Below, one piece after another: positions 2,834 through 21,528 of a stretch of 64,000 nucleotides of DNA (position 1 is the stretch's first letter; each line of letters opens with the position of its first letter). A program made the position numbers and the translations under genes. This stretch comes from a virus: positions 95,469 through 159,468 of IMG/VR virus record IMGVR_UViG_3300045988_126619, one strand, 5' to 3'. The notes beneath the pieces are model-generated. The model did no database searches. It was not told the origin of the DNA and was given only the letters and a program-made list of their open reading frames with translations.

Positions 2834-3275
2834 AATAATATATATATATATATTAATAACCTCCAAAATTTTAATAGGTATGTGCATCTTATAACCAAAT
2901 AAAAACAATATTTAATAAGTAAATAAGTTGCAGAAAGGGTAAAGTTAAATGGATAGAATAGAAATTCAAAATAAAATTAGTGAATTAATTGATGAAGCAG
3001 TAAATTCGCTAAATAATGACGAAATGAAATTATTCGTAAACAGAATGGAAGAAATGATTAAGGATATTGATTATTACGATTAGTTCGTAACACTTTAAGA
3101 TTGTGGAACAAGACTTAGAAAATTGGGATAACAAACCTATTCAATGGAATTATAGATATAAAATAACGATTTTAAAGGAGAAATAAAAGTATGAAAGATT
3201 GTAAATTTAATAGTTTATTTGAAAATGGAATAGAAAAAGAATTTATAACAGTATAAACACGGGGGATTTTAGATT

Positions 3276-5779: not shown

Positions 5780-6022
5780 ATGAAAAAATATGAATGTGTT
5801 AAAGCATTTTTAGTTCCATTATGTGATGATGATGGTTTCATTATAGAGAATGAAGACAAATATATAGAAGAAGGTTCTATATGGAGTACACCAAAAGATG
5901 AAAATTATAGATTGATAGGAGCAGAAGTTAGACTTGAAAAAAGTGATTGTGAACGGTTAGAATGGTTAGAAATAACTCAAGAAGATTTAGAAGACAAATT
6001 TAGATTGATAGAAGGTGTGTAA
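5780..6022 (+). CDS. hypothetical protein
   Basis: 80 aa with an AAGGGGGA SD. It lies downstream of the promoter at 5719-5747. Confidence 0.45.
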   Translation: MKKYECVKAFLVPLCDDDGFIIENEDKYIEEGSIWSTPKDENYRLIGAEVRLEKSDCERLEWLEITQEDLEDKFRLIEGV

Positions 6023-6023
6023 A

Positions 6024-7457
6024 ATGATAGATAAAGAATTAAATAAAAATATGGAAGTATTAAATATGTTGAGAAAAAGGATTATTATTTTGCCAGAAGT
6101 AAGGCTTATATTAGATAAACTTCACATAAATAATCATAAGGCTTATATTGTGGGAGGTTATGTTAGAGATTCATTGTTAAAGAATCGTATGCCACATGAT
6201 TGTGATATATGCACGTCTGCTACACCACAAGAAATTATGGATATATTTAAAAATTATAAAATAATTCCTACAGGTTTACAACATGGGACAGTAACTATTT
6301 GTATGAAATGGGGCGATTATGAAGTAACTACATTTAGAAAAGATGGGGAATATTTAGATGGTAGACACCCACAAACAATTGATTTTGTTAATGATTTAAA
6401 AGAAGATTTGAGCAGAAGGGATTTTACGATTAATGCGTTAGCTTATAATGAAGAAGAAGGATTAATTGATTATTTTGGAGGAAAGGAAGACCTTGAGAAT
6501 AAAATCATAAGATGTGTAGGAGATGCTGAAAAAAGATTTAAAGAAGATGGATTGAGAATATTAAGAGCATACAGATTCTCTGCACAATTAGGATTTACTA
6601 TAGAATATAATACAAGTAGTATATTAGCATATAAAGGTGTAAAAACAAATATAGATAACGTATCAAGAGAAAGAATAAGAGAAGAATTAAACAAAATTAT
6701 ATTATCTGATAATTCAAGAGAAGTATTGCTTAATATGGTTGATGATGGAATATGTAAAAGTATATTTGGGGATTTTACATTTGAAGATATGATGTTTTTT
6801 AATCAGAATAATCCTTATCACAATAGAACATTACTCAATCATACACTAACTGCCATGACTATTGCTCCACCAATTTTAGAAGTTAGATTGGCATTATTAT
6901 TTCATGATATAGGTAAATTACAAACACAAGCAACTGATGATAAAGGCATTTCTCACTATTATAATCATTCAAAAGTATCAGCAGAATTAGCTTTAAAGTA
7001 TTTAAAAGGATTAAAATATGATAATAAAACAATAGATATGGTTGTTACATTGATTGCAAACCATGATTTTACATTTGATAATTATGATTATATAATTAAG
7101 AAACAATTGAAGAAGCTTCTTAATAAACATGGGGAAGAAATTGTTAAGAATTTAATAATAATTAGAAAATGTGATATATTAGCACAATCAGAAAAGTATT
7201 ATTATGACCGATTAGAAAAAATTTATAAAGTTGAACGTTTACTAAATGATGTTTTAGAAGACCAAGAATGTTTTCAAATTAAAGATTTGGCTATAAACGG
7301 AAATGATTTAATTACAATAGGTTATGAGCAAGGTGTAGAACTTGGGAAAACTTTAAAATATATTGTAGACCTTGTTATAGAAGAACATTTGAATAATGAC
7401 AAAGAAGAATTATTAGAATATGCAAAATTTTTATTAAAAACACTTGACACAAAATAA
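6024..7457 (+). CDS. cca: CCA-adding enzyme (tRNA nucleotidyltransferase) with HD domain
   Basis: Contains the class II nucleotidyltransferase head motifs GGYVRDSLL, DCDI and RRDFTINAL, plus the HD motif LLFHDIGK. I prefer start ATG 6024 (GAAGGTG SD) over the track's GTG 6015. Confidence 0.8.
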   Translation: MIDKELNKNMEVLNMLRKRIIILPEVRLILDKLHINNHKAYIVGGYVRDSLLKNRMPHDCDICTSATPQEIMDIFKNYKIIPTGLQHGTVTICMKWGDYEVTTFRKDGEYLDGRHPQTIDFVNDLKEDLSRRDFTINALAYNEEEGLIDYFGGKEDLENKIIRCVGDAEKRFKEDGLRILRAYRFSAQLGFTIEYNTSSILAYKGVKTNIDNVSRERIREELNKIILSDNSREVLLNMVDDGICKSIFGDFTFEDMMFFNQNNPYHNRTLLNHTLTAMTIAPPILEVRLALLFHDIGKLQTQATDDKGISHYYNHSKVSAELALKYLKGLKYDNKTIDMVVTLIANHDFTFDNYDYIIKKQLKKLLNKHGEEIVKNLIIIRKCDILAQSEKYYYDRLEKIYKVERLLNDVLEDQECFQIKDLAINGNDLITIGYEQGVELGKTLKYIVDLVIEEHLNNDKEELLEYAKFLLKTLDTK

Positions 7458-7472
7458 ATGATAGTATATACT
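7444..7472 (+). promoter_or_regulatory. sigma-A-type promoter with the conserved element as spacer
   Basis: TTGACA at 7444-7449, 17-nt spacer CAAAATAAATGATAGTA, TATACT at 7467-7472. The cca stop codon (7455-7457) lies inside it. Confidence 0.65.
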
Positions 7473-7506
7473 ATTAGTATAGTAAACAAAAGAAAGGATT
7501 GATTGA

Positions 7507-8043
7507 ATGAAAGAAAGACAAATATTATATTTTATTGTAAGTAAGAGTGGGACAGGAAAAGATTATATTACTGATAAATTATGTAAGGAATTTGGAAAGA
7601 GTAAAGTAATATCTGCAACAACTAGAAGTCCAAGAAAAGGAGAAAAAGATACTCATAGATTTGTTTCTAATGAAGTAGCCGACAGAGAATTTGATAAAGC
7701 ATTAGGAAAAACAGTATTTAATGGAAACAGATATTATACAACATTAGATGACGTAAAAGATAAAGATTTTTATATCATTGACCAAAAAGGTGTAGAAACT
7801 TTTGACTATAGTAAATTAAGGGAAGAATTAAATACAGAGGTTCATGTGATTTATGTGAAATCTAAATGGTATGTAAGGGCGTATCATATGTTAAAACGTG
7901 GAGATAGTATTAAATCAATTATAAACAGATTGAGAAATGATAAACAATGTTTTGACGATAAATATTTAGAAAATATTGCTACAGTAACATTAAATGGTAG
8001 TGATGAATTATATCAATATTTTAAAGATAAGTACACAAAATAA
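7507..8043 (+). CDS. guanylate-kinase-like nucleoside monophosphate kinase
   Basis: 178 aa. It has the P-loop SKSGTGKDY and the signature TTRSPRKGEKDTHRFVS, similar to the Gmk TTRxPRxGE motif. Confidence 0.6.
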   Translation: MKERQILYFIVSKSGTGKDYITDKLCKEFGKSKVISATTRSPRKGEKDTHRFVSNEVADREFDKALGKTVFNGNRYYTTLDDVKDKDFYIIDQKGVETFDYSKLREELNTEVHVIYVKSKWYVRAYHMLKRGDSIKSIINRLRNDKQCFDDKYLENIATVTLNGSDELYQYFKDKYTK

Positions 8044-8068
8044 TAAATATATCATGGAGGAGTTTATT

Positions 8069-8341
8069 ATGAATTTAAAGGGGATTAAAGAACAGTCTAT
8101 AGAAATAATAAATACAGAAGTTACTGCGTATATAAAAACAGATAATAAAGAAGGGTTTTTATCTATAATGTTTGCACTAGGAGAAACAATTATATTATTA
8201 CACGACAATATTAGTCAAGCTGGTATGTGTGGTTCAAAGGAACAAATATTAGAACTGCTTAATGAAGAAAATTTTAAATATAATGAAATAACTTTTATTG
8301 CAAAAACAACAAAGTCTATTTCAGAATATACGGTAATATAA
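8069..8341 (+). CDS. hypothetical protein
   Basis: 90 aa from ATG 8069, with GGAGG at 8056-8060. The track's upstream extension overlaps the previous gene. Confidence 0.4.
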   Translation: MNLKGIKEQSIEIINTEVTAYIKTDNKEGFLSIMFALGETIILLHDNISQAGMCGSKEQILELLNEENFKYNEITFIAKTTKSISEYTVI

Positions 8342-8355
8342 AGGGGGAGTAAATT

Positions 8356-8787
8356 ATGAAAGACATAAAGGTAAAAGAATTTTATACTCAAGATGATTTT
8401 GATGGATTTGTAAGGATTGCACAAGCAGGAAATCTTAATTGTATGAATGAAGAACAATTTGAAAAATTAAGAGAAAACTATAATCCAAGCTATGATTTTG
8501 ATAAAGATATGGATGGATTTAAGAAATCATCATTTGTATTTGTAGAAAAACGAACATCTTTACATTTAATGATTTTTAATATAGTTTTAGTTTTTATTAC
8601 ATCTTTATTAAGTGGATATATGGCGGGAGAAATATATAGAGCAGGTATTTATTTATTATTACCATTTGTTATATGTGGAGTGTTATTTGTAATTCACCTA
8701 TTAAAAGAGTTTGAAACATTTTATTATATGTATTTTTGTGCTAAAGAAATTGAAAAAGTAATAAAAGAAATTAAGGGGAAAGAATAA
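8356..8787 (+). CDS. membrane protein (two predicted TM helices)
   Basis: 143 aa with an AAGGGGGAG SD. It has hydrophobic stretches LHLMIFNIVLVFITSLLSGY and IYLLLPFVICGVLFVIHLL. Confidence 0.45.
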   Translation: MKDIKVKEFYTQDDFDGFVRIAQAGNLNCMNEEQFEKLRENYNPSYDFDKDMDGFKKSSFVFVEKRTSLHLMIFNIVLVFITSLLSGYMAGEIYRAGIYLLLPFVICGVLFVIHLLKEFETFYYMYFCAKEIEKVIKEIKGKE

Positions 8788-8789
8788 TT

Positions 8790-9449
8790 ATGGCAAAATA
8801 TGTAATGAGTGATATACATGGAATGTACGACAAATATATTGAAATGCTTAAAAAGATTGGTTTTTCTAGTGATGATACTTTATATATATTAGGGGATATT
8901 ATCGACAGAGGTGCTGATTCTATGGAGATATATAAGCACATAATATCTAACGATAATATAACATTATTAAAGGGAAATCATGAATGGTTGTTTGAAGATT
9001 TTTGTAACGATAGTGTTGATTTTGCTTATTCTAACTGGAGATTCAATGGTGGGAGTGCCACTAAGAAAAGTATGTATAAAAATAAAGTTATGTATAAAGA
9101 GTTTTTACAATTTGTAAAAAAACTACCTACAATAATGGTGGTAGATGGGTTTATATTAGCACACGCAAGTATATATACAAACCCACCTTATACAGACCAT
9201 ATGGACTTAGATATGTTATTAGAAATACAAAACGAAGAACAATTATTATGGGATAGAAATGATATTGGTGAAGCAGAATATAAGGATTATCAATTTATAT
9301 TTGGGCATACACCGACCGAAACCATAGAAAAAGATAGAAATACTATTCTACACATTAATAATTCTTATTATATTGATTGTGGAGCGTGTTTTCAAGGTGG
9401 ACAATTAGCTTGTCTTAGACTGGATGATTTAAAAGAATTTTATGTATAA
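8790..9449 (+). CDS. metallophosphoesterase (lambda-phosphatase/ApaH/PrpE type)
   Basis: 219 aa with the ordered motifs SDIHG, GDIIDRG, GNHE and FGHTP. Confidence 0.7.
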   Translation: MAKYVMSDIHGMYDKYIEMLKKIGFSSDDTLYILGDIIDRGADSMEIYKHIISNDNITLLKGNHEWLFEDFCNDSVDFAYSNWRFNGGSATKKSMYKNKVMYKEFLQFVKKLPTIMVVDGFILAHASIYTNPPYTDHMDLDMLLEIQNEEQLLWDRNDIGEAEYKDYQFIFGHTPTETIEKDRNTILHINNSYYIDCGACFQGGQLACLRLDDLKEFYV

Positions 9450-9465
9450 AAATTATTAAAACATA

Positions 9466-9525
9466 TTGACATAAAATAAATGATAAGCAAAAAGACTTGA
9501 CTTTTATGGTTAAGTCTTTTATAAT
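9466..9525 (+). promoter_or_regulatory. composite: TTGACA plus conserved element, then a hairpin-embedded second promoter
   Basis: TTGACATAAAATAAATGAT at 9466-9484 has no -10 at 17 nt. A second promoter has TTGACT at 9497-9502, a 17-nt spacer and TATAAT at 9520-9525. It overlaps the hairpin AAGACTT/AAGTCTT at 9492-9518. Confidence 0.55.
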
Positions 9526-9560
9526 ATAATTGTAAAATAAATGAAAGAGAGTGATAAAAT

Positions 9561-9869
9561 ATGTTAAAAGTAGTTATTAAAGAACCAAGCAAGAAACCTT
9601 ATGTAAAGGAGATAGAAGATGAATTGAGTGTCTACCAAGAGATTGTAGGAGGATATATAGAAGTATTTCCATTTAGTGATTGTTTGGCGATTTGCAATGA
9701 AGAAGGAAAGTTTAAGGATTTAGCACCTAATTTCCCTTTATATTCTGCTAGAACAGGGGAAATGGTTGACATGGTAGTTGGTACTGTAATCTTTATTAAT
9801 GAAGGTAAAGATGGTGATTTTGCTAGTCTGAATGATGAACAGGTAGAAAGAATATTAAAGAGTTTATAG
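9561..9869 (+). CDS. small protein resembling DUF3846
   Basis: 102 aa. The pattern VYQEIVGGYIEVFPF...ICNEEGK resembles DUF3846 proteins of plasmid and phage leading regions. This is a weak call from memory. Confidence 0.3.
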   Translation: MLKVVIKEPSKKPYVKEIEDELSVYQEIVGGYIEVFPFSDCLAICNEEGKFKDLAPNFPLYSARTGEMVDMVVGTVIFINEGKDGDFASLNDEQVERILKSL

Positions 9870-9880
9870 TAAAAATTTAT

Positions 9881-9915
9881 GTGTGGCTAGGTGTAAAAAC
9901 TTGGCTACACTATTT
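9881..9915 (+). terminator. imperfect hairpin plus short T tract
   Basis: GTGTGGCTAG pairs with TTGGCTACAC (with G-U pairs), followed by TATTT. It lies just after the stop of 9561-9869. Confidence 0.4.
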
Positions 9916-9933
9916 AAACAAAATAAATAATAG
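9910..9933 (+). repeat. 24-nt direct repeat, copy 1
   Basis: CTATTTAAACAAAATAAATAATAG, identical to 10225-10248. It contains a variant of the conserved element. Confidence 0.8.
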
Positions 9934-9968
9934 CCTTGAAAAATATAATTGTAGAGAGGTATATAAAA

Positions 9969-10232
9969 ATGAATAAACAAGAATTAATTAAAACATTAAC
10001 AAAAAGATACAAAGAATCCGAGGAATGTATAAATAAAATTTTAGATTATGAAATTAAATATTTAACTGATATAGGATATGGAGAAAATAAAAGAGAAGAA
10101 AGTTTTATATTAAATTATAAAGATATTAAGACAGAAATAACAAGAATACAATATTATGTTGTTGGACATATAAAAGAATGTTGGTATATTAAAACTATAA
10201 GGAAAAATAGTAAATTATATAAATCTATTTAA
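9969..10232 (+). CDS. hypothetical protein
   Basis: 87 aa from ATG 9969, with an AGAGAGG SD. It is preceded by the 24-nt repeat at 9910-9933. Confidence 0.4.
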   Translation: MNKQELIKTLTKRYKESEECINKILDYEIKYLTDIGYGENKREESFILNYKDIKTEITRIQYYVVGHIKECWYIKTIRKNSKLYKSI

Positions 10233-10248
10233 ACAAAATAAATAATAG
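10225..10248 (+). repeat. 24-nt direct repeat, copy 2
   Basis: Identical to 9910-9933. Each copy sits just 5' of an SD. Confidence 0.8.
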
Positions 10249-10259
10249 AGGTGAAAAAT

Positions 10260-10514
10260 ATGAGTTTTGAATGGAAATGTAAATGTGAAAAAACAATAAT
10301 TATACCTTTTGCGGATATTCCAACACTAATGAGTGGTTTTGCTTATTGCGTATGTGAAGACTGTTATAAGGAGTTATTGAAAGAAGAAAGAAGTTATTAT
10401 GCAACAGAAGAAGAATTTAAAGAGTGGACAAGGGAATTTAAGCAAAATAATGGATTACCTTACTTTATAACTCCAGATGGAGCGACATATGCTTGTGAAG
10501 TAAAGAAAGATTAA
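10260..10514 (+). CDS. hypothetical cysteine-rich small protein
   Basis: 84 aa from ATG 10260, with an AGAGGTG SD. It has the Cys pairs CKCEK and CVCEDC. It is preceded by the 24-nt repeat at 10225-10248. Confidence 0.4.
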   Translation: MSFEWKCKCEKTIIIPFADIPTLMSGFAYCVCEDCYKELLKEERSYYATEEEFKEWTREFKQNNGLPYFITPDGATYACEVKKD

Positions 10515-10550
10515 TTTAGCATGAAAAAGAAAATATTAGATGTTTATTAG

Positions 10551-10587
10551 AATAAGTCAAGCAAATAGCTTGGCTTATTTTTTATTT
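10551..10587 (+). terminator. intrinsic terminator
   Basis: A 12-bp stem AATAAGTCAAGC/GCTTGGCTTATT (one G-U pair), loop AAATA, then TTTTATTT. Confidence 0.7.
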
Positions 10588-10693
10588 CTAGGCATCAGAG
10601 CCTTTGTGTAAGAGGTTTTAATTGTGCTAAGGATAAATTAGTCTATGATTAATAATAACGTCTTATAATTGACGTATGGAGCAAATAAAACTA

Positions 10694-10722
10694 TTGACAC
10701 AAAATAAATGATATGATAAAAT
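10694..10722 (+). promoter_or_regulatory. sigma-A-type promoter with the conserved element as spacer; fires into non-coding DNA
   Basis: TTGACA at 10694-10699, spacer CAAAATAAATGATATGA, TAAAAT at 10717-10722. The next ORF start is more than 500 nt downstream. Confidence 0.6.
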
Positions 10723-10728
10723 AAATCT

Positions 10729-11140
10729 TGTAAAAGTTAATTAAGAAGATATGAGAACAAACTATCTTTAAAGACAATCCGTGGAAGCTGACACCACGTA
10801 TAAACAAGGCTGAACTGTAGGCAACGCAAGAAAAATACAGTAGGACAGATACATTACTCTATTTATGTTAATCTGCCCTTTAAGTGGGTACATATGTCCA
10901 CTATATAAATTATATGGGTGTTTCTAGGGAACTGGCAGAAATGCGGGATATAAGTCACATACAAACCTTTGTCGGGTAACAGTTGGCAATTGTAGACTTA
11001 TATACAAATAGAGATAGCATGAGCGATACAATTCAGTATACTCAACTATGTTTTTCTTTTTACTCTCAATTTTGAGGGTAAAACATAAACACTTCGCAAC
11101 GTTTCCACAGTTCCTCAACTATACTTTTCTTAATTCAAAA
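10729..11140 (+). ncRNA. candidate structured non-coding RNA, class unknown
   Basis: About 0.4 kb lies downstream of the promoter at 10694-10722 with no plus-strand ORF. G+C is visibly higher than in flanking DNA. There are several local stems (CGTGG/CCACG at 10790-10808, ACTGTA/TACAGT at 10813-10841, GGACAGAT/ATCTGCC at 10843-10876). Class and 3' end are undetermined. Confidence 0.35.
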
Positions 11141-11154
11141 GTCAAGTGTTTTTA

Positions 11155-11169
11155 CATAAAATAAATAAT
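11155..11169 (+). promoter_or_regulatory. conserved element, stand-alone copy
   Basis: CATAAAATAAATAAT, 7 nt upstream of the -35 of promoter 11176-11204. Confidence 0.5.
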
Positions 11170-11175
11170 AAAGTG

Positions 11176-11204
11176 TTGACAATATTTAAAATGTATTATA
11201 TAAT
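11176..11204 (+). promoter_or_regulatory. sigma-A-type promoter (conserved element lies upstream at 11155-11169)
   Basis: TTGACA at 11176-11181, 17-nt spacer, TATAAT at 11199-11204. Confidence 0.65.
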
Positions 11205-11246
11205 AATAGTATAGTAAATAAGATAAATGATAAGGAGAGAGGTAAC

Positions 11247-11870
11247 ATGACAAAATTAGAAAAAGATATTATAAAAGAAAAACTTAAAGGATTAGAAGAA
11301 GGAACAAAGATATATGTAAAAGATGGTGATGGAATAGTACAAGAAGCAAAGTTTGAGAAAATGAATAGAACAAGATTTGTAGCCAAGTATAAGAATGGAA
11401 CTTATTCATTCCCACTAAGCTTTTTTATAGGAACTTGTGATGATAGTATAAAGGCTAAAGAAATCATAAATGAACAAAAGAATAAATATAAGAAATTTAA
11501 CTTTATTAAAAAGAATCTTAATATTAAGGGACTTAATACAACAGATTGTGCTGTTAGAGGTGTGGCAGAATTATTAAATATATCATGGGAAGATGCTATG
11601 ATTAGATTAGCACAAACGTCTTGTATTACTGGTGAAATGCCTAACGATATAAGAACAACTGATATGTTATTAGAAAAAGAAGGGTTCAAACATATTAAAA
11701 TTAAAAAGATGAAAGTTATTGATTTTGTAGAGAATATAGCAGAGAAGGATAAAAAATATGCAATTCATGCTAGTGGACACTTTACAGTAGTTAAAGGATA
11801 TGACTTAATAGATTCATGGGATTGTAGAAATAATATGATAAAGTCAGTATTAGAAATGGAGGATAAATAA
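11247..11870 (+). CDS. protein with C-terminal papain-like (C39-like) peptidase domain
   Basis: 207 aa. NTTDCAVRG (Cys) followed by HASGHFTVVKGYDLIDSWD (His, Asp) resembles Peptidase_C39-like domains. AAGGAGAGAGG SD. Confidence 0.35.
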   Translation: MTKLEKDIIKEKLKGLEEGTKIYVKDGDGIVQEAKFEKMNRTRFVAKYKNGTYSFPLSFFIGTCDDSIKAKEIINEQKNKYKKFNFIKKNLNIKGLNTTDCAVRGVAELLNISWEDAMIRLAQTSCITGEMPNDIRTTDMLLEKEGFKHIKIKKMKVIDFVENIAEKDKKYAIHASGHFTVVKGYDLIDSWDCRNNMIKSVLEMEDK

Positions 11871-11871
11871 G

Positions 11872-12300
11872 ATGAAGAAAGAAACTAGGATAGAAATAAG
11901 AGAAATACCATATAATGTTTATGTTGCAGAAGATGGTACAGAATTTGATTATGAACAAGCATGTAAAGAGTATGAATTAAAGTTAAAAGGAGTTAAATTT
12001 AAAAATTTATCAGATTTCCAAAGTATTAATAATTTAAATTTTTTAGATTGTTATAAATGGTATTATGTGGAAGATAAAGATGATTTAGAATTATTCACGC
12101 AAGCATTAAAAAAACAATATTATAATTGTAGTATATATATGGAGTACGATGATGAATACTATTGTAACACATGGGTATCATTTAGAAAAACAGAAGATGA
12201 TTATGGAACAGATGTAGAAATAATACCATATAAGATTATTGAAGAACAATTTAATAATGTTAAAAATGTTTTAAGTCAAAATAATATTGACAAAAAATAA
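11872..12300 (+). CDS. hypothetical protein
   Basis: 142 aa with a GGAGGA SD. No motif recognised. Confidence 0.45.
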   Translation: MKKETRIEIREIPYNVYVAEDGTEFDYEQACKEYELKLKGVKFKNLSDFQSINNLNFLDCYKWYYVEDKDDLELFTQALKKQYYNCSIYMEYDDEYYCNTWVSFRKTEDDYGTDVEIIPYKIIEEQFNNVKNVLSQNNIDKK

Positions 12301-12315
12301 AATATATTATATAAT
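12287..12315 (+). promoter_or_regulatory. sigma-A-type promoter (conserved element lies downstream at 12331-12345)
   Basis: TTGACA at 12287-12292, 17-nt spacer, TATAAT at 12310-12315. Confidence 0.65.
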
Positions 12316-12330
12316 ATTAAATATAGAAAA

Positions 12331-12345
12331 CATAAAATAAACAAT
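12331..12345 (+). promoter_or_regulatory. conserved element, stand-alone copy
   Basis: CATAAAATAAACAAT, 16 nt after the -10 of promoter 12287-12315. It is immediately followed by the SD AAAGGAGAAG of the RNase H gene. Confidence 0.5.
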
Positions 12346-12359
12346 AAAGGAGAAGTGTT

Positions 12360-12965
12360 ATGGCAAAATATTATGCGATTAAATCAATTGATGGAGAATT
12401 AGTAAATAAGATTTATACAAGTTGGGATGAATGTAAAGAAAAGGTTAGTGGACATAACTCAATTTATAAATCATTTAAAACACAAGAACAGGCAGAAGAA
12501 TATTTAGGAAACGCACAAGAAGAAATTAAAGAGCATGAAATAAATGATAATAATGTAATATATTATGTTGATGGTTCTTATATGAATGATGTAATAGGTT
12601 GGGGTTGGGTAAAAGTAAAGAATGGTAAACAGATAGGTTCTGATTGTGGAGGTATTAAACCAACACAAGAAAATAGTCGTAATATAACAGGAGAATTACA
12701 AGCAACTATGTTTGCAGTAAAGAACGCAATATTAACTGGTGTGAAAGATATTTACATTGGACATGATTATCAAGGAATAAGTTGTTATGTAAGAAAAGAA
12801 TGGAAACCAAAAAGTAAAGAATCAGTAGCTTATACTAAATGGATGTTAGATGCTATAAAAAAATATAATTTAAATATTCAATTTTTTAAGATAAAAGGGC
12901 ATACTGGTAATGAATGGAATGAAGTAGTAGATAAAGTTGCTAAATTAGGGACAGAGGTGATTTAA
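12360..12965 (+). CDS. RNase H1 with N-terminal hybrid-binding domain
   Basis: 201 aa. The N-terminal YYAIKSIDG...IYTSWDECKEKVSGHNSIYKSFKT matches the RNase H1/caulimovirus hybrid-binding domain. The C-terminal catalytic motifs are YYVDGSY, TGELQA, HDYQG and HTGNEWNEVVDKVAK. Confidence 0.7.
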   Translation: MAKYYAIKSIDGELVNKIYTSWDECKEKVSGHNSIYKSFKTQEQAEEYLGNAQEEIKEHEINDNNVIYYVDGSYMNDVIGWGWVKVKNGKQIGSDCGGIKPTQENSRNITGELQATMFAVKNAILTGVKDIYIGHDYQGISCYVRKEWKPKSKESVAYTKWMLDAIKKYNLNIQFFKIKGHTGNEWNEVVDKVAKLGTEVI

Positions 12966-13255
12966 TGTATAATTTAATTTCTATATCAATATCTATTGCA
13001 TTAGTAATATATATCATATGTTGTGTAGTATTGTGTTTTTATTTTTCAGAATTACTGGATAAACATAAGTTAAATATAAAAGATGCAATAAAAGATTTAA
13101 CAATATTTGATATAATATTAGCGATTGTGTTTTGGGTTACTACAGTAGCTACTATTATAGTATTTATTATAGCAAAAATAATAGATAAAATTACAAAAGT
13201 TAAACTTTGGAATATGTTAAAGAAGAAGCCATTTAAAAATATTGGTGATAAATAA
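12965..13255 (+). CDS. membrane protein
   Basis: 96 aa with two hydrophobic helices. Its start overlaps the upstream stop (TAATG). Confidence 0.45.
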   Translation: MYNLISISISIALVIYIICCVVLCFYFSELLDKHKLNIKDAIKDLTIFDIILAIVFWVTTVATIIVFIIAKIIDKITKVKLWNMLKKKPFKNIGDK

Positions 13256-13277
13256 ATTATATTACAGAGGTGATTTA

Positions 13278-13622
13278 ATGAAAAAGGTAAGAATTAAGGA
13301 AAGAAAAATTTGTACAGAAGGTCATGAAAATATTTTAAAATTTATTAATGAAATGTATTATATACGAGAAATTAATAAAGAGAATCCAGATATGTTTGAA
13401 TTTATACTTGATAATTGTAGAGCATTTTATAAAGACATTACAAATAGTTTTAGAGAACATTTAGGAATTAACAATATTATATCATTAGGTATAGCAACAC
13501 ATAAAAAGACTGGAAAAGAAGTATTGTGTATTAATATTTGGGATTGTGATATTGATAAAGAAGATACAACACGTTGGTATACAATAGAAGAAGATGAAGA
13601 AGGTGTGTATATTAATGTGTAA
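13278..13622 (+). CDS. hypothetical protein
   Basis: 114 aa from ATG 13278, with an AGAGGTG SD. I did not adopt the track's upstream extension. Confidence 0.4.
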   Translation: MKKVRIKERKICTEGHENILKFINEMYYIREINKENPDMFEFILDNCRAFYKDITNSFREHLGINNIISLGIATHKKTGKEVLCINIWDCDIDKEDTTRWYTIEEDEEGVYINV

Positions 13623-13679
13623 AAAATAATATCTTAGAAATATAAAAAAATATAAATTGAATATTAGGAGGAATTTATA

Positions 13680-13853
13680 ATGAAAGAACAAGAATATTTT
13701 GAAAAGTACAAACAATTAAACACTCTTAGAATGAAAGCAGAAAAAGAAGAACCAAACAAATATATAGCGTATGGGTTTGAACAAGCTTTAATTAAATTAC
13801 AGAAAGATTATCAAGAATCATTAGTAGAAGTTGGTGAGGATAATGTTGAATAG
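13680..13853 (+). CDS. hypothetical small protein (below track cutoff)
   Basis: 57-aa ORF MKEQEYFEKY...VGEDNVE, with AGGAGG 7 nt upstream. It fills an otherwise empty gap. Confidence 0.35.
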   Translation: MKEQEYFEKYKQLNTLRMKAEKEEPNKYIAYGFEQALIKLQKDYQESLVEVGEDNVE

Positions 13854-14115
13854 TTTATTAAATGTTGGGGTATCTATAGTGTTTGTGTTCTTATATATAC
13901 TTTTAATAAGAGTGTTTATCAGAATATATACAATATATGATGATACAGCACCAAAACTGGATAAGAATAAATTTTTCTATGGACTTGGTTTTGATGATTT
14001 AATAACTTATATTGGTGCATTTACAATGGGTATATTAATTATTGCATTGTTATTTACTGTATCTGATATGTTTGGAGGATTTTTATTAAATATGATTAAA
14101 GGGGTGATTAAATAA
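13843..14115 (+). CDS. membrane protein, paralog of 14115-14375
   Basis: Starts at ATG 13843 after GGTGAGGA. It shares the ...YD.T..KLD.NKFF.GL... core between two TM helices with the next gene. Confidence 0.45.
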   Translation: MLNSLLNVGVSIVFVFLYILLIRVFIRIYTIYDDTAPKLDKNKFFYGLGFDDLITYIGAFTMGILIIALLFTVSDMFGGFLLNMIKGVIK

Positions 14116-14375
14116 TGTATAATTATGTGTTTACTCCAATGGTAGGGTTAATAACACTTGGAATATTATTTTTAATATTTAGACAAATATGTTTTATAAT
14201 TGCAAAATATGATAAAACTGTTCATAAATTAGATGATAATAAATTTTTTAAAGGGTTAGATGCAGAATATATATTTGGATGCCTTATTGTAACTGTTGTT
14301 GGAATAGCTGTGTTATTATTAATTTATGTAATATTAGTTGTTATAGGAAATGTTGTTATTAACACATTATTTTAA
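14115..14375 (+). CDS. membrane protein, paralog of 13843-14115
   Basis: 86 aa with a TAATG stop/start overlap. It has the KYDKTVHKLDDNKFFKGLD core between two TM helices. Confidence 0.45.
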   Translation: MYNYVFTPMVGLITLGILFLIFRQICFIIAKYDKTVHKLDDNKFFKGLDAEYIFGCLIVTVVGIAVLLLIYVILVVIGNVVINTLF

Positions 14376-14384
14376 AAAAATATA

Positions 14385-14413
14385 TTGACAAGACATAAAA
14401 TAAATGATATACT
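14385..14413 (+). promoter_or_regulatory. sigma-A-type promoter, element shifted +3
   Basis: TTGACA at 14385-14390, spacer AGACATAAAATAAATGA, TATACT at 14408-14413. Confidence 0.6.
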
Positions 14414-14445
14414 TAGTATATAGTAAATACTAAGTATATTTTTTT
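14409..14445 (+). terminator. intrinsic terminator overlapping the promoter 14385-14413
   Basis: A perfect 11-bp stem ATACTTAGTAT/ATACTAAGTAT, a 7-nt loop, then A plus T7. The 5' arm begins at the -10 hexamer. Confidence 0.6.
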
Positions 14446-14458
14446 AGGAGGAATGTTT

Positions 14459-14800
14459 ATGAATAAAAATGTATTAACAGAGAGAGATTTGATGCTTATT
14501 AAAGAATGGTATTTTAATTATGTTCATGATGGAAAAGATACAGAAGAATCGGAAGCACTATACTACAAGATAGATTCAATGTTAGATAATAAGTTTAAGG
14601 ATGGAACTAACTTACAAGTATTTTGGTATGATGGTGATATTACAAACTATGTTTATAATAAAAATACACAAATGTTTGTAAATGCTGAAACAGGAAGTGT
14701 TTTTACTAGTGTAATAATTGATTGTAAATATGATTTAGAAAAATTTGTACAACAGGCTGACTTGATTAAAGATATAAAAATTATTGATGGAGGAATGTAA
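14459..14800 (+). CDS. hypothetical protein, paralog of 14803-15051
   Basis: Starts at ATG 14459, 7 nt after AGGAGG. The C-terminal half (LQVFWYDGDITNYVYNKNTQMF) aligns with the next ORF (LKVVWFDDTTSEYNYDSNKQLF). Confidence 0.45.
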   Translation: MNKNVLTERDLMLIKEWYFNYVHDGKDTEESEALYYKIDSMLDNKFKDGTNLQVFWYDGDITNYVYNKNTQMFVNAETGSVFTSVIIDCKYDLEKFVQQADLIKDIKIIDGGM

Positions 14801-14802
14801 AA

Positions 14803-15051
14803 ATGGATATTAAACATGGAGCAGTTTTAAAAGTTGTTTGGTTCGATGATACTACATCAGAATATAATTATGATTCAAATAAACAATTATTTATTAAGAC
14901 AGGTGTAGATAGGGCAATTTATTTTACTAAAACTAAAATATTCACAATAGAAGAACTAGAGGATTTTATAGAGCGTATTGATGATGATGAAATTAAAAAT
15001 ATTAGAGGTTATGTTCCAACAGTAATCAGTCATATAATTTTAAATGATTAG
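14803..15051 (+). CDS. hypothetical protein, paralog of 14459-14800
   Basis: 82 aa with a GGAGGA SD. See the paralog alignment in the previous entry. Confidence 0.45.
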   Translation: MDIKHGAVLKVVWFDDTTSEYNYDSNKQLFIKTGVDRAIYFTKTKIFTIEELEDFIERIDDDEIKNIRGYVPTVISHIILND

Positions 15052-15062
15052 GAGTGTGAAAT

Positions 15063-15473
15063 ATGAATATATATAGAACAATTAATACACAAGCAGAAAG
15101 ATTATACAGTCAATATAAGGAACATGGTAATATAATTATAGCATATGATTTTGATGATACAGTTTATGGACACAATGGAAATAATTGTGATGATGTAATA
15201 AGAGTTCTTAGATGTTGTAAGCAAGCAAATATAGGTAGATTTATTTGTTATACTGCAAGTAAAGAAGAACGATATCCGTTTATAGAGCAGTATTGTAAAG
15301 ATATGAATTTACCATTGGATAAAATAAATGATGGTTTTGATGATGTTAACCACGTTAACGGTGGAAAGATTTATTATAATATATTTTTAGATGATAAAGC
15401 AGGTTTAGGACAAGCACTTGAAACATTACAGATTGTATTAAATAGGATTATAGATAATACAGATGCTTTTTAA
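15063..15473 (+). CDS. HAD-superfamily phosphatase (possible 5'-nucleotidase)
   Basis: 136 aa. It has the motif I IIIAYDFDDTVYG (DxDxT/V) and a late FLDDK aspartate motif. Confidence 0.45.
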   Translation: MNIYRTINTQAERLYSQYKEHGNIIIAYDFDDTVYGHNGNNCDDVIRVLRCCKQANIGRFICYTASKEERYPFIEQYCKDMNLPLDKINDGFDDVNHVNGGKIYYNIFLDDKAGLGQALETLQIVLNRIIDNTDAF

Positions 15474-15486
15474 GGAGATGATAAAC

Positions 15487-15861
15487 ATGATAGAGATGGA
15501 AGAAATTAATAATATATCATATGAAACTTGTTTGTGTATATTGCGTAATCCAAACATAAGTAAAGACGTTAAGTTATATCAAGTATTAGATATGGTTGAA
15601 CAGGGGATGGTGTCAGTAAGAACAGCTTTGTTGTTGTTATATAAGTATAAAGTAATAACACAAACTTATGCAGAAATAGAATCAGAGCATAACAAGAATT
15701 ATTTGAAATATTATCAAATGTTAAATAAGACTTCAAGAACGTGTCAGAAATGTGGAGAAACAAAGTCATATACATTAGATATTGAAAGAAGGGATGTACC
15801 ATACAATATATTATGTGAAGAATGTTGGGTTGAGTATATGAACGATAATGATTTAGCATAA
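15487..15861 (+). CDS. hypothetical protein with C-terminal Cys4 motif
   Basis: Starts at ATG 15487, 9 nt after AAGGAG. It contains CQKCGE...CEECW. The stop lies inside the conserved element at 15857-15871. Confidence 0.4.
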   Translation: MIEMEEINNISYETCLCILRNPNISKDVKLYQVLDMVEQGMVSVRTALLLLYKYKVITQTYAEIESEHNKNYLKYYQMLNKTSRTCQKCGETKSYTLDIERRDVPYNILCEECWVEYMNDNDLA

Positions 15862-15871
15862 AATAAATGAT
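15857..15871 (+). promoter_or_regulatory. conserved element, stand-alone copy (no -35)
   Basis: CATAAAATAAATGAT directly followed by AGGAGAGG and the Pnkp start. It contains the upstream stop codon. Confidence 0.5.
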
Positions 15872-15886
15872 AGGAGAGGTAAAGAT

Positions 15887-18070
15887 ATGAGAACATTAGT
15901 TTTACTTAGAGGAAGTGCAGGATGTGGCAAATCAACATTTATTAAGGAGCATAAGTTAGAGGACTATACGTTGTCCTCTGACAGTTTTAGATTATTATAT
16001 AGTTCACCTATATTAATGAATGATGGAACACAATCAATTAGTGGAAAACATGAGAAAAAGACATGGGAAACATTATTTAATATCCTAGAATATAGAATGG
16101 AACAAGGGTTATTTACAGTAATAGATGCTACTAATAGTAAGGTTTCTGAAATTAACAAATATAAAAAACTTGCTGAATTTTATAGATATAATATTATTGT
16201 AGTAGATTTTACAGATTTGCCAAGAGAAGAATGTAAGATTAGAAATGCAAATAGAGAACCTAGTTATAAAATAGTTCCAAATGTTGTAATAGATAAATTC
16301 TATGATAGATTTGATAAAAAGGAAAAGTTAAGTGGAGTAACAGTTATTAAACCACATGAATTTGAACAAGCTATAAGGATTACACCTATTAATGTATCTA
16401 ACTATAATGATATTCAAATCATAGGAGATATTCATGGTTGTTATGATGCACTAATGACAATGTTAGAAGGTGGACAATTAAAAGAAGATAGATTATATAT
16501 ATTCACAGGAGATTTTTGTGATAGAGGTATCCAAAATGCAGAAGTGTTAGAATATTTATTCACTATTATGAACAATGATAATGTAATTTTATTAGAAGGA
16601 AACCATGAAAGAGCCTTATGGAGATATGCAAATGATTTATATAGTCAACGAAGACAATTTGAAAAATATACAAAAGAAGAATTAATTAATAAAAATGTTT
16701 CTAAATCAAAAATTAGACATTTATATAGAAGATTAAGGCAAATGGCTTTATTAAAGTTTGATGAAAAGACATTATTTATTTGTCATGGTGGTATTACTAA
16801 TTTATCACAAGATTTACATTTGATTTCAGCAGAACAATTAATTTATGGTGTAGGTAATTATGAAGAAGTTGAAATTATTGATAATATATTTGAATTAAAC
16901 ACAAGTTCTACAACTTATCAGATACATGGACATAGAAATGTTAATAGTAAACCTATTAATATAACACCAAGATGTTTCTGTTTAGAAGATAGAGTAGAAT
17001 TTGGTGGGAATTTAAGAAGTGTAATATTTACACACTCTATAATTAAAACTGTATCAGTAAAGAATGATACATATAAAGATTCAGAATACACAGAGGATAA
17101 AGATATTGTTATAGAGCCAAACATATTAGATAGATTAAGAAGTAGTGAATTAATTAGAGAAGTTAAGTTTGGTAATATTTCATCATTCAATTTTACAAGA
17201 AAAGCTTTTAATAATAAAGAATGGAATAATGAAACAATCAAAGCGAGAGGTTTATATGTAAATACTAATACAAAAGATATAGTTATAAGAAGTTATGATA
17301 AATTCTTTAATGTTAATGAAAGAGAAGAAACACAATTACAGAACCTTTGTAAATCACTTTCTTATCCTGCTACAGCGTATGTTAAGTACAATGGATATCT
17401 TGGTCTAGTTGGTTATGATAACGAATCTGACAAGCTGTTAGTGGCTTCTAAATCACGATTGGATGGAGATTATGCAGACTGGATAAGAGAGATAATAAAT
17501 ACATGGGAAGATGATAAAATTCAATTCATGCAAGATTATGTTAAAAAGAACAAATGTACGCTAGTATTTGAAGTTATTGTTCCAGAACATGATACTCATA
17601 TGATTAAGTATGATAAGTCTGAATTAGTGCTTTTATCCATTGTCAGAAATAATATTGAATTTGAACAGCTACCATATGAAGAAGTAATCGAACTTGGACA
17701 CCGTTTAAATTTAAATTTTAAAGAGAAAGCAATTGTTTTAAATAATAAGGAAGAGTTTTTGTCATGGTATAGAGAAGTTACACAAGAAGACTATATGTAT
17801 AATGGTGAAGATATTGAAGGCTTTGTAATAGAGGATTCTAAAGGATTTATGACAAAAATTAAGTGTAGTTATTATACATTTTGGAAACATATGCGAGCAT
17901 TAGTGGGAAGATATAAAAAACAAGGATATTATATGGATACTTCCAATTTAAATGATAGAGCATTATTATTCTTAGAATTTTTAAAGACATTACCAAAAGA
18001 ACAATTGGAATATGATATCATTACATTAAGAGATATGTTTTACAATTATGTTATTAATAAATTTTTTTAA
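15887..18070 (+). CDS. trifunctional RNA-repair enzyme (polynucleotide kinase / metallophosphatase / RNA-ligase-type adenylyltransferase), bacterial Pnkp-like
   Basis: 727 aa. The kinase has the P-loop GSAGCGKST. The phosphoesterase has GDIHGC, GDFCDRG and GNHE. The nucleotidyltransferase has motifs I KYNGYLG, III LVFEVI, IV IEGFVIED and V MTKIK. Confidence 0.75.
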   Translation: MRTLVLLRGSAGCGKSTFIKEHKLEDYTLSSDSFRLLYSSPILMNDGTQSISGKHEKKTWETLFNILEYRMEQGLFTVIDATNSKVSEINKYKKLAEFYRYNIIVVDFTDLPREECKIRNANREPSYKIVPNVVIDKFYDRFDKKEKLSGVTVIKPHEFEQAIRITPINVSNYNDIQIIGDIHGCYDALMTMLEGGQLKEDRLYIFTGDFCDRGIQNAEVLEYLFTIMNNDNVILLEGNHERALWRYANDLYSQRRQFEKYTKEELINKNVSKSKIRHLYRRLRQMALLKFDEKTLFICHGGITNLSQDLHLISAEQLIYGVGNYEEVEIIDNIFELNTSSTTYQIHGHRNVNSKPINITPRCFCLEDRVEFGGNLRSVIFTHSIIKTVSVKNDTYKDSEYTEDKDIVIEPNILDRLRSSELIREVKFGNISSFNFTRKAFNNKEWNNETIKARGLYVNTNTKDIVIRSYDKFFNVNEREETQLQNLCKSLSYPATAYVKYNGYLGLVGYDNESDKLLVASKSRLDGDYADWIREIINTWEDDKIQFMQDYVKKNKCTLVFEVIVPEHDTHMIKYDKSELVLLSIVRNNIEFEQLPYEEVIELGHRLNLNFKEKAIVLNNKEEFLSWYREVTQEDYMYNGEDIEGFVIEDSKGFMTKIKCSYYTFWKHMRALVGRYKKQGYYMDTSNLNDRALLFLEFLKTLPKEQLEYDIITLRDMFYNYVINKFF

Positions 18071-18131: not shown

Positions 18132-18311
18132 ATGATGAAAAAATTTAAAAAAGATAAGATTGTTTTAGAAGGTGGTTACGTTCCCACAAGATTTACAAAT
18201 GTAGAAGGAAGTCTTCAAGAAATTAATAGGGGTTGTGGTATTCACAAATCTAAAAAAGCTTATAAAAGAAATCTAAAACACAGAAAGAAGGAATTAGAAT
18301 ATGATTTTTAA
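18132..18311 (+). CDS. small basic protein
   Basis: 59 aa from ATG 18132, after AAGGAAGGTG. It is the first gene after the promoter at 18079-18107. Confidence 0.4.
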   Translation: MMKKFKKDKIVLEGGYVPTRFTNVEGSLQEINRGCGIHKSKKAYKRNLKHRKKELEYDF

Positions 18312-18963
18312 GAAAATTTGGCAAACAATTAAAAAGGTCTTATCATTCTTATCTCATAGAGTAGATAAATCAATTCCAGTAGAAGACCAATTAGAAATTA
18401 TGAAAAAAGACCTACTACAAAAGAAACATGATATTGAAAATAATTCTAATCTTATGCAAATAAGAGGGATGAAACAACAATATGAGCAGGAACTCAAAGA
18501 CCTAAGAAGAGAATTTGCAAATGCAAACTTTGATAAAACTATTAAATTTTTAAAAGATAATAATGATACAGAACACGCATTAGAAACACTAAAGAAAAAG
18601 AAAAGACTAGAATCAAAAATAGAAGCAACTAAGGATAGACTTAAACAAGCAAAAGAAGCTGATAGAAATATCGTTAAGAAATTAAATCTATTAGATGCTA
18701 AGATTCAAGCTACAACAGATAAGATTGAAGAATTAAAAGAAAGAAATCAATATGCAGAACAAACAAATGCTATTGCTGATTTAATGAACCAATTAAACGA
18801 TATTGATACTGGTGTAGATGTTGATGGAATTTCAGATAGAATTAAATCTATTGAAAGAGAATCTAATGGAAGACTTGATGAATTTAATAGAAGAAGTTCT
18901 GGAGAAATTGCTAGACAAGAATCTTTAGATAATGCTTTACTAGAAGAATTAAATAATTATTAA
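18301..18963 (+). CDS. PspA/IM30 (phage-shock protein A)-like coiled-coil protein
   Basis: 220 aa. An N-terminal amphipathic helix (IFKKIWQTIKKVLSFL) is followed by PVEDQLEIMKKDLLQKKHDIE and long heptad-rich helices. Size and pattern match the PspA/Vipp1 family. Confidence 0.5.
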   Translation: MIFKKIWQTIKKVLSFLSHRVDKSIPVEDQLEIMKKDLLQKKHDIENNSNLMQIRGMKQQYEQELKDLRREFANANFDKTIKFLKDNNDTEHALETLKKKKRLESKIEATKDRLKQAKEADRNIVKKLNLLDAKIQATTDKIEELKERNQYAEQTNAIADLMNQLNDIDTGVDVDGISDRIKSIERESNGRLDEFNRRSSGEIARQESLDNALLEELNNY

Positions 18964-18988
18964 TTAAATAATATACGAAAAAATAATT

Positions 18989-19012
18989 GAGGTGTAAATC
19001 ATTATACACCTC
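18989..19012 (+). terminator. stem-loop without U-tract, immediately 5' of the conserved element
   Basis: An 8-bp stem GAGGTGTA/TACACCTC after the PspA-like gene. Confidence 0.35.
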
Positions 19013-19015
19013 ACA

Positions 19016-19030
19016 CATAAAATAAATGAT
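19016..19030 (+). promoter_or_regulatory. conserved element, stand-alone copy (no -35)
   Basis: ACACATAAAATAAATGAT after the hairpin at 18989-19012, followed by AAAAGGAGA. Confidence 0.5.
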
Positions 19031-19049
19031 AAAAAGGAGAATGAAAAGT

Positions 19050-19466: not shown

Positions 19467-19478
19467 GGGGTAGTTTAT

Positions 19479-20033: not shown

Positions 20034-20043
20034 AATAAACGAC
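20029..20043 (+). promoter_or_regulatory. conserved element, stand-alone copy (variant)
   Basis: CATAAAATAAACGAC. It contains the TerD stop (20031-20033), and its 3' end enters the hairpin at 20042-20072. Confidence 0.45.
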
Positions 20044-20072
20044 AGCAGGACTTATTATATAGGTTCTGCTGT
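20042..20072 (+). terminator. stem-loop after terD
   Basis: ACAGCAGGA pairs with TTCTGCTGT (one G-U pair), followed by ATTTAAAAA. Confidence 0.4.
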
Positions 20073-20096
20073 ATTTAAAAACGAGGAGAGAGAACT

Positions 20097-20432: not shown

Positions 20433-20436
20433 TTAA

Positions 20437-20856: not shown

Positions 20857-20880
20857 ATAAAAAAATATTTTAAAAAAGTA

Positions 20881-20909
20881 TTGACATAAAATAAATGATA
20901 TGATATACT
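20881..20909 (+). promoter_or_regulatory. sigma-A-type promoter with the conserved element as spacer
   Basis: TTGACA at 20881-20886, spacer TAAAATAAATGATATGA, TATACT at 20904-20909. Confidence 0.65.
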
Positions 20910-21517: not shown

Positions 21518-21528
21518 TATTAATAAAA

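Follow-up and report, generated by a model that had tools for sequence, protein, structure and literature searches.

A promoter-driven non-coding cassette with two unrelated alternative forms in a phage genome: a candidate RNA gene

We analysed a 64,000-nt stretch of viral DNA, hereafter the window (positions 95,469 to 159,468 of the IMG/VR record IMGVR_UViG_3300045988_126619), and in it the 732-nt gap at 10515-11246, which is the longest stretch of the window without an open reading frame (ORF) of at least 60 amino acids (aa). An earlier note, made from the letters of this DNA, had proposed that a consensus phage promoter in the gap drives a large structured RNA. We call the 378-nt cassette found behind this promoter in the window type A and an alternative non-coding cassette of 417-419 nt, which occupies the same slot in some related phages, type B. 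Loci fetched from relatives carry the prefix L. The locus comprises the following features.

10549-10587, plus strand: intrinsic terminator that closes the upstream gene block, with a 14-bp stem at 10549-10581 and a T run
10694-10722, plus strand: promoter P1, near-consensus with extended -10 (TTGACA-17 nt-TG-n-TAAAAT, 11/12)
10728-10741, plus strand: predicted initial transcribed bases TTGTAAAAGTTAAT, present with either cassette type; the left junction lies after 10741
10742-11119, plus strand: type A cassette, 378 nt, 36% G+C, non-coding; its most invariant core is at about 10846-10975
11114-11131, plus strand: copy 2 of a direct repeat, lying across the right cassette junction 11119/11120
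11118-11145, minus strand: predicted promoter-like site facing back into the cassette (TTGACT-16 nt-TATAGT)
11120-11175, plus strand: right flank common to types A and B, TATACTTTTCTTAATTCAAAAGTCAAGTG...
11176-11204, plus strand: promoter P2, 12/12 consensus, the own promoter of g207
11247-11870, plus strand: g207, a 207-aa gene that is always found 3' of the slot

The strong terminator, which had been placed at 10551-10587 before, was found with 14 pairs in its stem; it is kept in the relatives, where the alignment shows compensating changes in the stem. P1 follows about 110 nt past it, with a predicted transcription start at about 10729-10732. The class A promoter call of the earlier note was borne out: P1 matches 11 of the 12 consensus positions and has the TG of an extended -10, and its hexamers and 17-nt spacing are kept, with a variable spacer, in all 12 distinct relatives and with both cassette types. 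A census of plus-strand promoter-like sites scoring at least 11 of the 12 consensus positions returned 22 sites in the window. A start codon preceded by a Shine-Dalgarno (SD) sequence lies 16-121 nt downstream of 20 of them; the two exceptions are a site at 7068, inside the gene of the CCA-adding enzyme, and P1 itself, from which the next start is 525 nt away. P1 is an orphan consensus promoter, the sole one among the 21 intergenic sites of this score that has no start codon within 121 nt.

The DNA behind P1 has no coding capacity. A start codon preceded by a ribosome binding site (RBS) was found nowhere in 10515-11246. The statement that this stretch has no plus-strand ORF holds for ORFs of at least 60 aa, but plus-strand ORFs of 30-38 aa do exist; they lack an RBS and are not conserved. 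No reading frame is conserved on either strand, as stops and three 1-nt indels break the frames, and the 45 substituted positions fall 10/15/20 over the three codon positions, showing no codon periodicity. The longest stop-free frames of both cassette types gave no match in Pfam and PHROGs. With neither a conserved frame nor codon periodicity nor a protein-family match, a decayed gene was rejected, and the non-coding reading survived the very check by which the earlier note had proposed to challenge it.

The best ORF candidate encodes 38 aa (11048-11164), and a hidden small protein or a type I toxin-antitoxin system, with the antisense RNA coming from the facing promoter-like site, would be one way to explain the locus. 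The peptide begins with MFFFLLSIL followed by basic residues, and L011 and L019 could encode a similar peptide. However, no start in the gap has an RBS, the frame is shifted in L014, the C-terminus and the stop codon differ in every copy, and the differences between copies mostly change the amino acid. Moreover, the hydrophobic run comprises only 9 residues, and the ORF lies outside the invariant core and spans less than one third of the conserved block. We consider a small protein extremely unlikely, and a type I toxin-antitoxin system was rejected on the missing SD-preceded start, the frameshift in L014 and the mostly non-synonymous changes.

Intergenic gaps elsewhere in this genome had been described as tens of nt long. 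The gap studied here is indeed the longest, but gaps of 380-520 nt also occur in the window, and these are occupied by small genes or by a probable group I intron. The gaps 2834-3275, 13623-13830 and 48277-48658 turned out to be coding after all, with small genes that have a good RBS; those found in such gaps encode 44 aa (2950-3084), 21 aa (3192-3257), 57 aa (13680-13853) and a hydrophobic product of 58 aa (48409-48585). The rise in G+C after the promoter was confirmed, with 0.36 in 10742-11119 compared with 0.27 across the window, and very AT-rich DNA adjoins this G+C-enriched, presumably transcribed part of the locus.

The exact 207-aa protein of g207 is encoded on about 20 gut-metagenome contigs, the longest of which measure 159,027 and 159,411 bp. 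In three of them (L001, L003, L005) the gap is identical to that of the window. In six others (L002, L004, L006, L007, L009, L010) the outer parts of the gap, i.e. gap positions 1-227 with the terminator and P1 and positions 606-732 with P2, are 94-100% identical to the window, and the central 378 nt are replaced by an unrelated 417-419 nt of similar G+C. The junctions of this swap are sharp: the left one follows ...GTAAAAGTTAAT, 12 nt past the predicted start, and the right one precedes TATACTTTTCTTAATT.... Types A and B resemble each other no more than expected from short words that match by chance.

Homologues of g207 (52-87% identity) and of the upstream metallophosphatase led to more distant relatives. 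Here, too, the gap is present, with a length of about 700 nt; it holds type A in L011-L014 and L019-L021 and type B in L017 and L018, which brings the number of distinct sequences to 5 for type A and 7 for type B. Neither an empty slot nor a third cassette type was seen among the relatives. Metallophosphatase homologues of 52-63% identity, followed as an outgroup, belong to other phages that do not have the locus. The window matched no deposited phage. Exact-pattern scans of IMG/VR, JGI metagenomes and GTDB genomes gave no match to the cores of the cassettes or to patterns from the flanks, and IMG/VR likewise gave none when scanned at the protein level for the two flanking proteins; apparently these collections are without this phage group.

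The type A cassette is conserved more strictly than its surroundings. In the pairwise comparisons of the window, L011 and L014 its identity is 0.947/0.911/0.900, whereas the four neighbouring genes are 0.59-0.83 identical in the same comparisons, with the exception of RNase H between L011 and L014 (0.90), and the non-coding DNA on either side of the cassette is 0.64-0.81 identical. The conserved block begins at the predicted transcription start (TTGTAAAAGTTAAT, 10728) and runs to CCTCAACTATA (11123). Within it divergence is several-fold below that of the flanks in all three pairs. Since the reduction is seen in every pair, purifying selection fits better than a single recent transfer, for which one near-zero distance would be expected.

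This comparison also bears on the possibility that the cassette is a non-functional passenger, namely the remains of a gene, a piece of a mobile element, or DNA that is similar between phages only through recent exchange via repeated promoter modules. The neighbourhood is plastic, with a TnpB gene (L002, L004, L007), an HNH gene (L017) and a 193-aa gene (L011) inserted nearby, and the cassette swap itself shows that recombination has taken place at the slot. Furthermore, the -35 and spacer of P1 recur in the right flank as a degenerate copy at 11151-11170, upstream of P2 (85% identical to 10694-10713), and such repeated promoter modules may be a substrate for the recombination that swaps the cassettes. 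Nevertheless, the cassette diverges three to five times more slowly than the genes in all three pairs, where neutral DNA should diverge faster, and no frame carries a protein-family signal. Terminal inverted repeats and target duplications are missing at the cassettes, a second copy of either cassette was found neither in the window nor in the 31 fetched loci, and the flanks of the TnpB element show no similarity to either cassette. In addition, the variable sites avoid the pairs predicted for the plus strand (see below). A passenger is therefore very unlikely.

Rfam release 15 was searched with the gathering score as cutoff for the window and for three type B loci, and with E <= 10 for the two cassette types. 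Under the stricter cutoff the window matched no family, ROOL, GOLLD and group I introns included, and the type B loci yielded nothing besides an unrelated CRISPR repeat where a contig ends. With E <= 10, the region 10400-11350 and the type B cassette gave only hairpin-like microRNA noise. The ROOL and GOLLD types, which the earlier note had listed as candidates, were accordingly rejected for both cassettes, as neither matches their covariance models; for GOLLD, the tRNA genes that typically, though not by definition, accompany it in phage genomes are missing from the window as well. The two stretches at about 10897 and 10991 that had been read as faint group I core elements in reverse orientation gained no support either: there is no group I signal at E <= 10 at the locus, and the element sits between a terminator and a promoter-preceded gene and not within a gene. 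The permissive scan does find a group I match elsewhere in the window (33657-33785, E = 1e-4), which makes the negative result at 10515-11246 meaningful. This match to RF00028 lies on the plus strand in a 524-nt gap (33345-33868) without an SD-preceded ORF. It is below threshold (26.8 bits compared with a gathering score of 50) and has the conserved GAUAUAGUC element and a P9 hairpin; judging from the sequence, a group I intron probably splits the ORFs 32886-33344 and 33869-34477.

Other classes of RNA were considered as well. ARAGORN found no tRNA, tmRNA or tRNA-like module in the 64-kb window, and neither cassette matched a riboswitch, T-box or leader family, Rfam RNAI or an antisense-control RNA. 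A guide RNA of an IS200/IS605 TnpB or a miniature element was rejected, as the locus lacks a tnpB, neither cassette resembles the TnpB element of the relatives, and neither has a second copy in the window or the fetched loci. The same applies to a CRISPR array or a solitary-repeat anti-CRISPR, since neither cassette matches a CRISPR-DR family and tandem repeats are missing, and to antisense regulation of a phage gene, since the best duplexes with 102 translation start regions of the window stayed within the null distribution of shuffled RNAs.

Folding of the type A cassette predicted the following elements, all on the plus strand.

10745-10769: 5' hairpin AAGAUA/UAUCUU, helix 1, with 7 of its 8 pairs invariant
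10780-10798: hairpin CGUGG/CCACG, helix 2, in which 10780-10784 pairs with 10794-10798
10814-10841: hairpin ACUGUA/UACAGU, helix 3, invariant
10843-10944: central multi-hairpin domain, helices 5-9, nearly invariant
10948-11003: long hairpin AUAUAAGUC...GACUUAUAU with an inner stem, helices 10-12
11010-11064: weak hairpin (about -6 kcal/mol) followed by UGUUUUUCUUUUU, possibly a first weak terminator; it holds copy 1 of the direct repeat
11058-11083: strong hairpin UUUUACUCUCA/UGAGGGUAAAA, -11.3 kcal/mol, helix 14

Three of the stems pointed out before were recovered by folding (10745-10769, 10814-10841 and 10843-10878), but the one drawn at 10790-10808 is really the pairing 10780-10784/10794-10798. 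As a single sequence, the plus strand of type A folds with -99.4 kcal/mol (z -4.4 compared with shuffles). The plus strand of type B reaches -120.3 kcal/mol (z -4.3) and its minus strand only -89.0 kcal/mol (z -1.6). Numerous G-U pairs of the plus strand, such as those in a 26-bp hairpin, give rise to this asymmetry, which agrees with an RNA that is read from P1. For calibration, 159 windows of 400 nt from this genome were folded (mean z -0.7, standard deviation 1.4); the cassette window has a z of -3.8, which ranks fifth, and the lowest folding energy of all 159. Very low z values of -4.7 and -4.5 were also obtained at 2729 and 13529.

The few sequence differences between copies are in part informative on the strand. 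The 47 variable sites of type A avoid the predicted pairs of the plus strand, as 18 of them fall into pairs although 56% of the columns are paired, and show no avoidance of those predicted for the minus strand. Helix 2 holds the sole pair of type A that changes on both sides, from G-C to A-U (CGUAG/CUACG) in L014 and L019. The central domain contains one G-C to G-U change, which is tolerated on the plus strand only, and two one-sided changes in the long hairpin yield G-U pairs on the plus strand. Among the 7 type B sequences, 2 of 120 pairs change on both sides and none of 500 shuffles reached the observed covariation score, a score that relatedness among the sequences alone can yield without structure. 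A patch of 13 substitutions in type B retains two or three short helices; compared with random chimeras, the stability of the natural alleles lies at only the 6th and 22nd percentile, which is no more than suggestive. A pairing of the 5' end with the 3' end, seen as a closing helix in the single-sequence folds, was rejected, since it is not kept in the diverged type A copies and is no better than in shuffles; other long-range pairings are not conserved either. A structured RNA is thus plausible on the basis of the fold energies, for type B in a strand-specific manner, with covariation being too sparse to prove it.

We propose with moderate confidence that the locus is a stand-alone, early-transcribed gene for a non-coding RNA which exists in two unrelated alternative forms that are swapped by recombination in the shared flanks. 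Host RNA polymerase would start at P1, at about 10730, and transcribe some 330-400 nt that would never be translated. The RNA would fold as a chain of hairpins around the near-invariant core and end at weak terminator-like hairpins (about 11062 and 11135) or continue towards the next gene. The RNA itself would be the product and act in trans, and the slot between the conserved promoter and the right flank would hold one or the other RNA, depending on exchange by flank recombination. The core of the earlier idea, namely that a promoter drives a functional element which is non-coding and probably an RNA, is upheld by the orphan P1, the lack of a frame and a conservation above that of the genes, but the classes named for it are not.

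Several results weigh against this proposal. The minus strand of type A folds as well as the plus strand (-100.4 kcal/mol, z -4.1), and a conserved promoter-like site faces into the cassette, so that type A may be read from either strand. Four other windows of the genome have a similar or lower z. Covariation in type A was assessed on 5 sequences, with local hairpins predicted from nothing but the window sequence; of 100 local pairs, 89 are invariable, one changes on both sides, and four change on one side yet stay paired. The fold energies beat shuffles, but 58 of 500 shuffles reached the covariation score of type A. When helices with compensated pairs were counted, the result was not significant against column shuffles for either type or strand, and substitutions within the pairs of the whole-molecule minimum free energy structure break pairs more often than they keep them. 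Moreover, nothing that passes a terminator scan closes the cassette unit, types A and B share no outstanding target among the 102 start regions, and the element is known from only one phage clade on about 20 contigs. Finally, a host-directed or decoy role is suggested by nothing but the genomic context and the pattern of alternative cargo.

The candidates for the 3' end of the presumed transcript consist only of weak hairpins with a U-tract (-6 to -9 kcal/mol), none of which was called by the terminator scan. The direct repeat of about 18 nt noticed before is present at 11041-11058 and 11114-11131 with 16 of 18 positions identical, but only its first 9 nt (CTCAACTAT) are conserved in the relatives. 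Both copies coincide with the 3' half-stem and the U-rich tail of two weak hairpins. Besides, two alternative hairpins near the 3' end share a UUGAGG segment.

Such alternative hairpins would also suit a long cis-regulatory 5' leader, whose transcript would read from P1 into g207, g142 and RNase H and act by attenuation or by occlusion of P2. No strong terminator was found between the cassette and g207, and g207 follows the cassette in every relative. However, g207 has a 12/12 promoter of its own, situated 43 nt ahead of the start, the cassettes match no family of riboswitches, T-boxes or leaders, and neither the 5'-3' closing helix nor other long-range pairings are conserved. The 207-aa protein is identical in type A and type B phages, and g207 is therefore not co-adapted to the cassette. 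Taken together, a leader is unlikely. A role of g207 as protein partner of the RNA was rejected on the same identity and on the weak structural matches of its model (pLDDT 78), a small Tudor/SH3-like barrel with matches at E of about 0.04 and an unmatched C-terminal domain.

The facing promoter-like site leads to another explanation, in which the locus is a DNA element activated by transcription, either an R-loop-primed origin in the manner of ColE1 RNA II/RNA I or of T4, or a switch of face-to-face promoters. In the three diverged type A lineages the hexamers and the 16-nt spacing of this site are kept while the spacer differs at several positions, which is the signature that a real promoter would bear. 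The strong promoter without a gene, the G+C-enriched, presumably transcribed DNA beside very AT-rich DNA, the equal folding of both type A strands and an RNase H1 with a hybrid-binding domain 1.2 kb downstream would agree with such an element, and plasmid-like Clostridium prophages are among the nearest cultured relatives. The resemblance to ColE1 comprises a strong promoter with a predicted structured non-coding transcript, a promoter-like site facing it and a nearby RNase H; unlike in ColE1, the distance between the sense start and the facing site is about 380 nt instead of about 110 nt, and RNAI is not matched. In type B, moreover, the site reads TATACG or AATACG in place of the -10 and misses the conserved final T, and the strand-specific folding of type B would be unexpected for a pure DNA element. 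The replication or packaging cis-element that the earlier note had entertained found no positive support: iterons, tandem repeats and DnaA-box clusters are missing at the locus, the cumulative GC skew has no inflection there, the replication genes are 29-46 kb away (the module lies at about 40-58 kb), and no antisense-control family of Rfam is matched. We attribute only a small probability to a DNA element.

Returning to the proposed RNA gene, an accessory role against the host may be envisaged, e.g. as a decoy or sponge for a host factor that binds or cuts RNA. Such a role is suggested by the alternative cargo in an early, strongly promoted slot, by the RNA-repair genes and by other genes of counter-defence type. 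In a more specific version, the two alleles, found in a previously undescribed clade of ~159-kb gut phages, would be interchangeable RNA weapons of equivalent function and form a new counter-defence class. They would serve as decoys for defence enzymes that cut RNA or assemble by themselves as ornate RNAs, and different hosts or defence repertoires would then select for keeping both cassette forms. This version is speculative and we regard it as rather unlikely.

Comparable systems are found in several contexts. The large ornate RNAs ROOL and GOLLD of Firmicutes phages and prophages have been resolved by cryo-electron microscopy (PMC12286853). Like these, the element described here would be a large non-coding RNA that has its own transcription signals, lies close to RNA- or tRNA-related genes and belongs to phages whose Gram-positive hosts have a low G+C. 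In contrast to them, it matches no covariance model, occurs in a single clade without adjacent tRNA genes, has only a predicted fold and is shorter, with about 390 nt compared with lengths of roughly 580 nt for ROOL and 800 nt for GOLLD. Bacterial Y RNAs (YrlA) are encoded within rsr-rtcBA RNA-repair operons (PMC4201824). The location of a non-coding RNA gene among RNA-repair genes is similar, but Rfam gave no match to Y RNAs, neither ARAGORN nor Rfam revealed a tRNA-like module, the element is two to three times longer, and no Ro60-type protein was found among the proteins scanned.

Variable accessory slots for anti-defence functions have been described in early regions of related phages, where differing genes lie between conserved flanks (bioRxiv 10.1101/2023.05.01.538930). 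The slot in our study likewise carries unrelated alternative cargo at one position of an early, strongly promoted region and is swapped between near-identical genomes. Unlike in the described slots, both cargos are non-coding. Phage RNAs that counteract immunity comprise solitary-repeat RNA anti-CRISPRs and viral single-guide RNAs (bioRxiv 10.64898/2026.06.01.729453). A phage RNA as an active counter-defence molecule is common to both cases, here only as a proposal. The cassettes differ from these RNAs in that they resemble no CRISPR repeat family, are three to four times longer and have no guide-like variable end, as the variable patch of type B keeps its pairing.

The generic kind, a phage gene for a non-coding RNA, is already known, and the type A and B sequences belong to no described family. 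To our knowledge, two unrelated non-coding alleles in one promoter slot are unusual. The large phage RNAs known to date are few, and even for ROOL and GOLLD, the most familiar of them, no function is established; if our proposal is true, the locus would add two new RNA families. It would also provide a natural experiment, with near-identical phages that differ only in which unrelated RNA is expressed from one promoter, and this natural A/B pair makes the function directly testable. The setting among tRNA and RNA-repair genes and NAD-salvage genes points to a conflict between phage and host over RNA integrity.

The surrounding genes are the following; nearly all genes are on the plus strand as far as about 58.7 kb.

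6015-7457: CCA-adding enzyme
7507-8043: guanylate-kinase-like protein
8790-9449: metallophosphatase
12360-12965: RNase H1 with hybrid-binding domain
15887-18070: kinase/phosphatase/T4-type RNA ligase fusion, 727 aa
18301-18963: PspA/IM30-like protein
22009-22665: TerD protein
22747-25365: P-type cation ATPase, 872 aa
26959-27783: phosphoribosyltransferase
27885-29375: NAMPT
29683-30420: NAD synthase
60659-61747, minus strand: protein with choline-binding repeats, 362 aa
62291-63592, minus strand: RCC1-repeat protein, 433 aa

The locus is part of an early-type region whose genes are short and carry consensus promoters of their own. Positions 6015-18070 form an RNA-repair island, to which some relatives add an RlaP nucleotidyltransferase; the 64-kb window contains no tRNA genes. 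The genes listed for 18301-30420 are unusual auxiliary genes in a phage, and three of them, those of the phosphoribosyltransferase, NAMPT and NAD synthase, resemble a counter-defence pathway of NAD reconstitution. At about 58.7 kb the gene orientation flips, and the minus-strand block at 60659-63592 encodes the RCC1-repeat and choline-binding repeat proteins, which possibly have functions in host recognition or lysis.

From the sequences of the relatives, the neighbourhood of the slot is an insertion hotspot. Some type B phages have a TnpB of 449 aa (OrfB_IS605 and a Cas12f1-like domain; 2690-4039 in L002, 115-1464 in L004 and L007) between their metallophosphatase and DUF3846 genes, an insertion that lies about 1.4 kb upstream from the slot. 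In L017 an ORF for an HNH-type endonuclease (...CCYCGHIIHTYDYEHY...NIGIACKDCNKVKG..., about 200-596) replaces the small genes upstream of the gap, and L011 and L012 have an extra 193-aa gene with a weak match to choline-binding repeats.

The nearest cultured phages are very distant, with a DnaE identity of about 37% to the Clostridium phages c-st and D-1873 and to large Bacillus siphoviruses. Together with a CRISPR repeat on L006, c-st and D-1873 suggest low-G+C Clostridia as candidate hosts. This full-length CRISPR-DR3 repeat (RF01316, 44 bits) lies on the minus strand of L006 (Logan DRR875379_3930) at positions 1-30, at the start of a 65.9-kb phage contig. Directly behind the repeat comes phage promoter DNA, and the 17 nt after it differ from the window. 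This repeat is either a phage-borne solitary repeat, which may be an RNA anti-CRISPR, or an assembly join via a host spacer, and on either reading it is a clue to a host of the Clostridia type.

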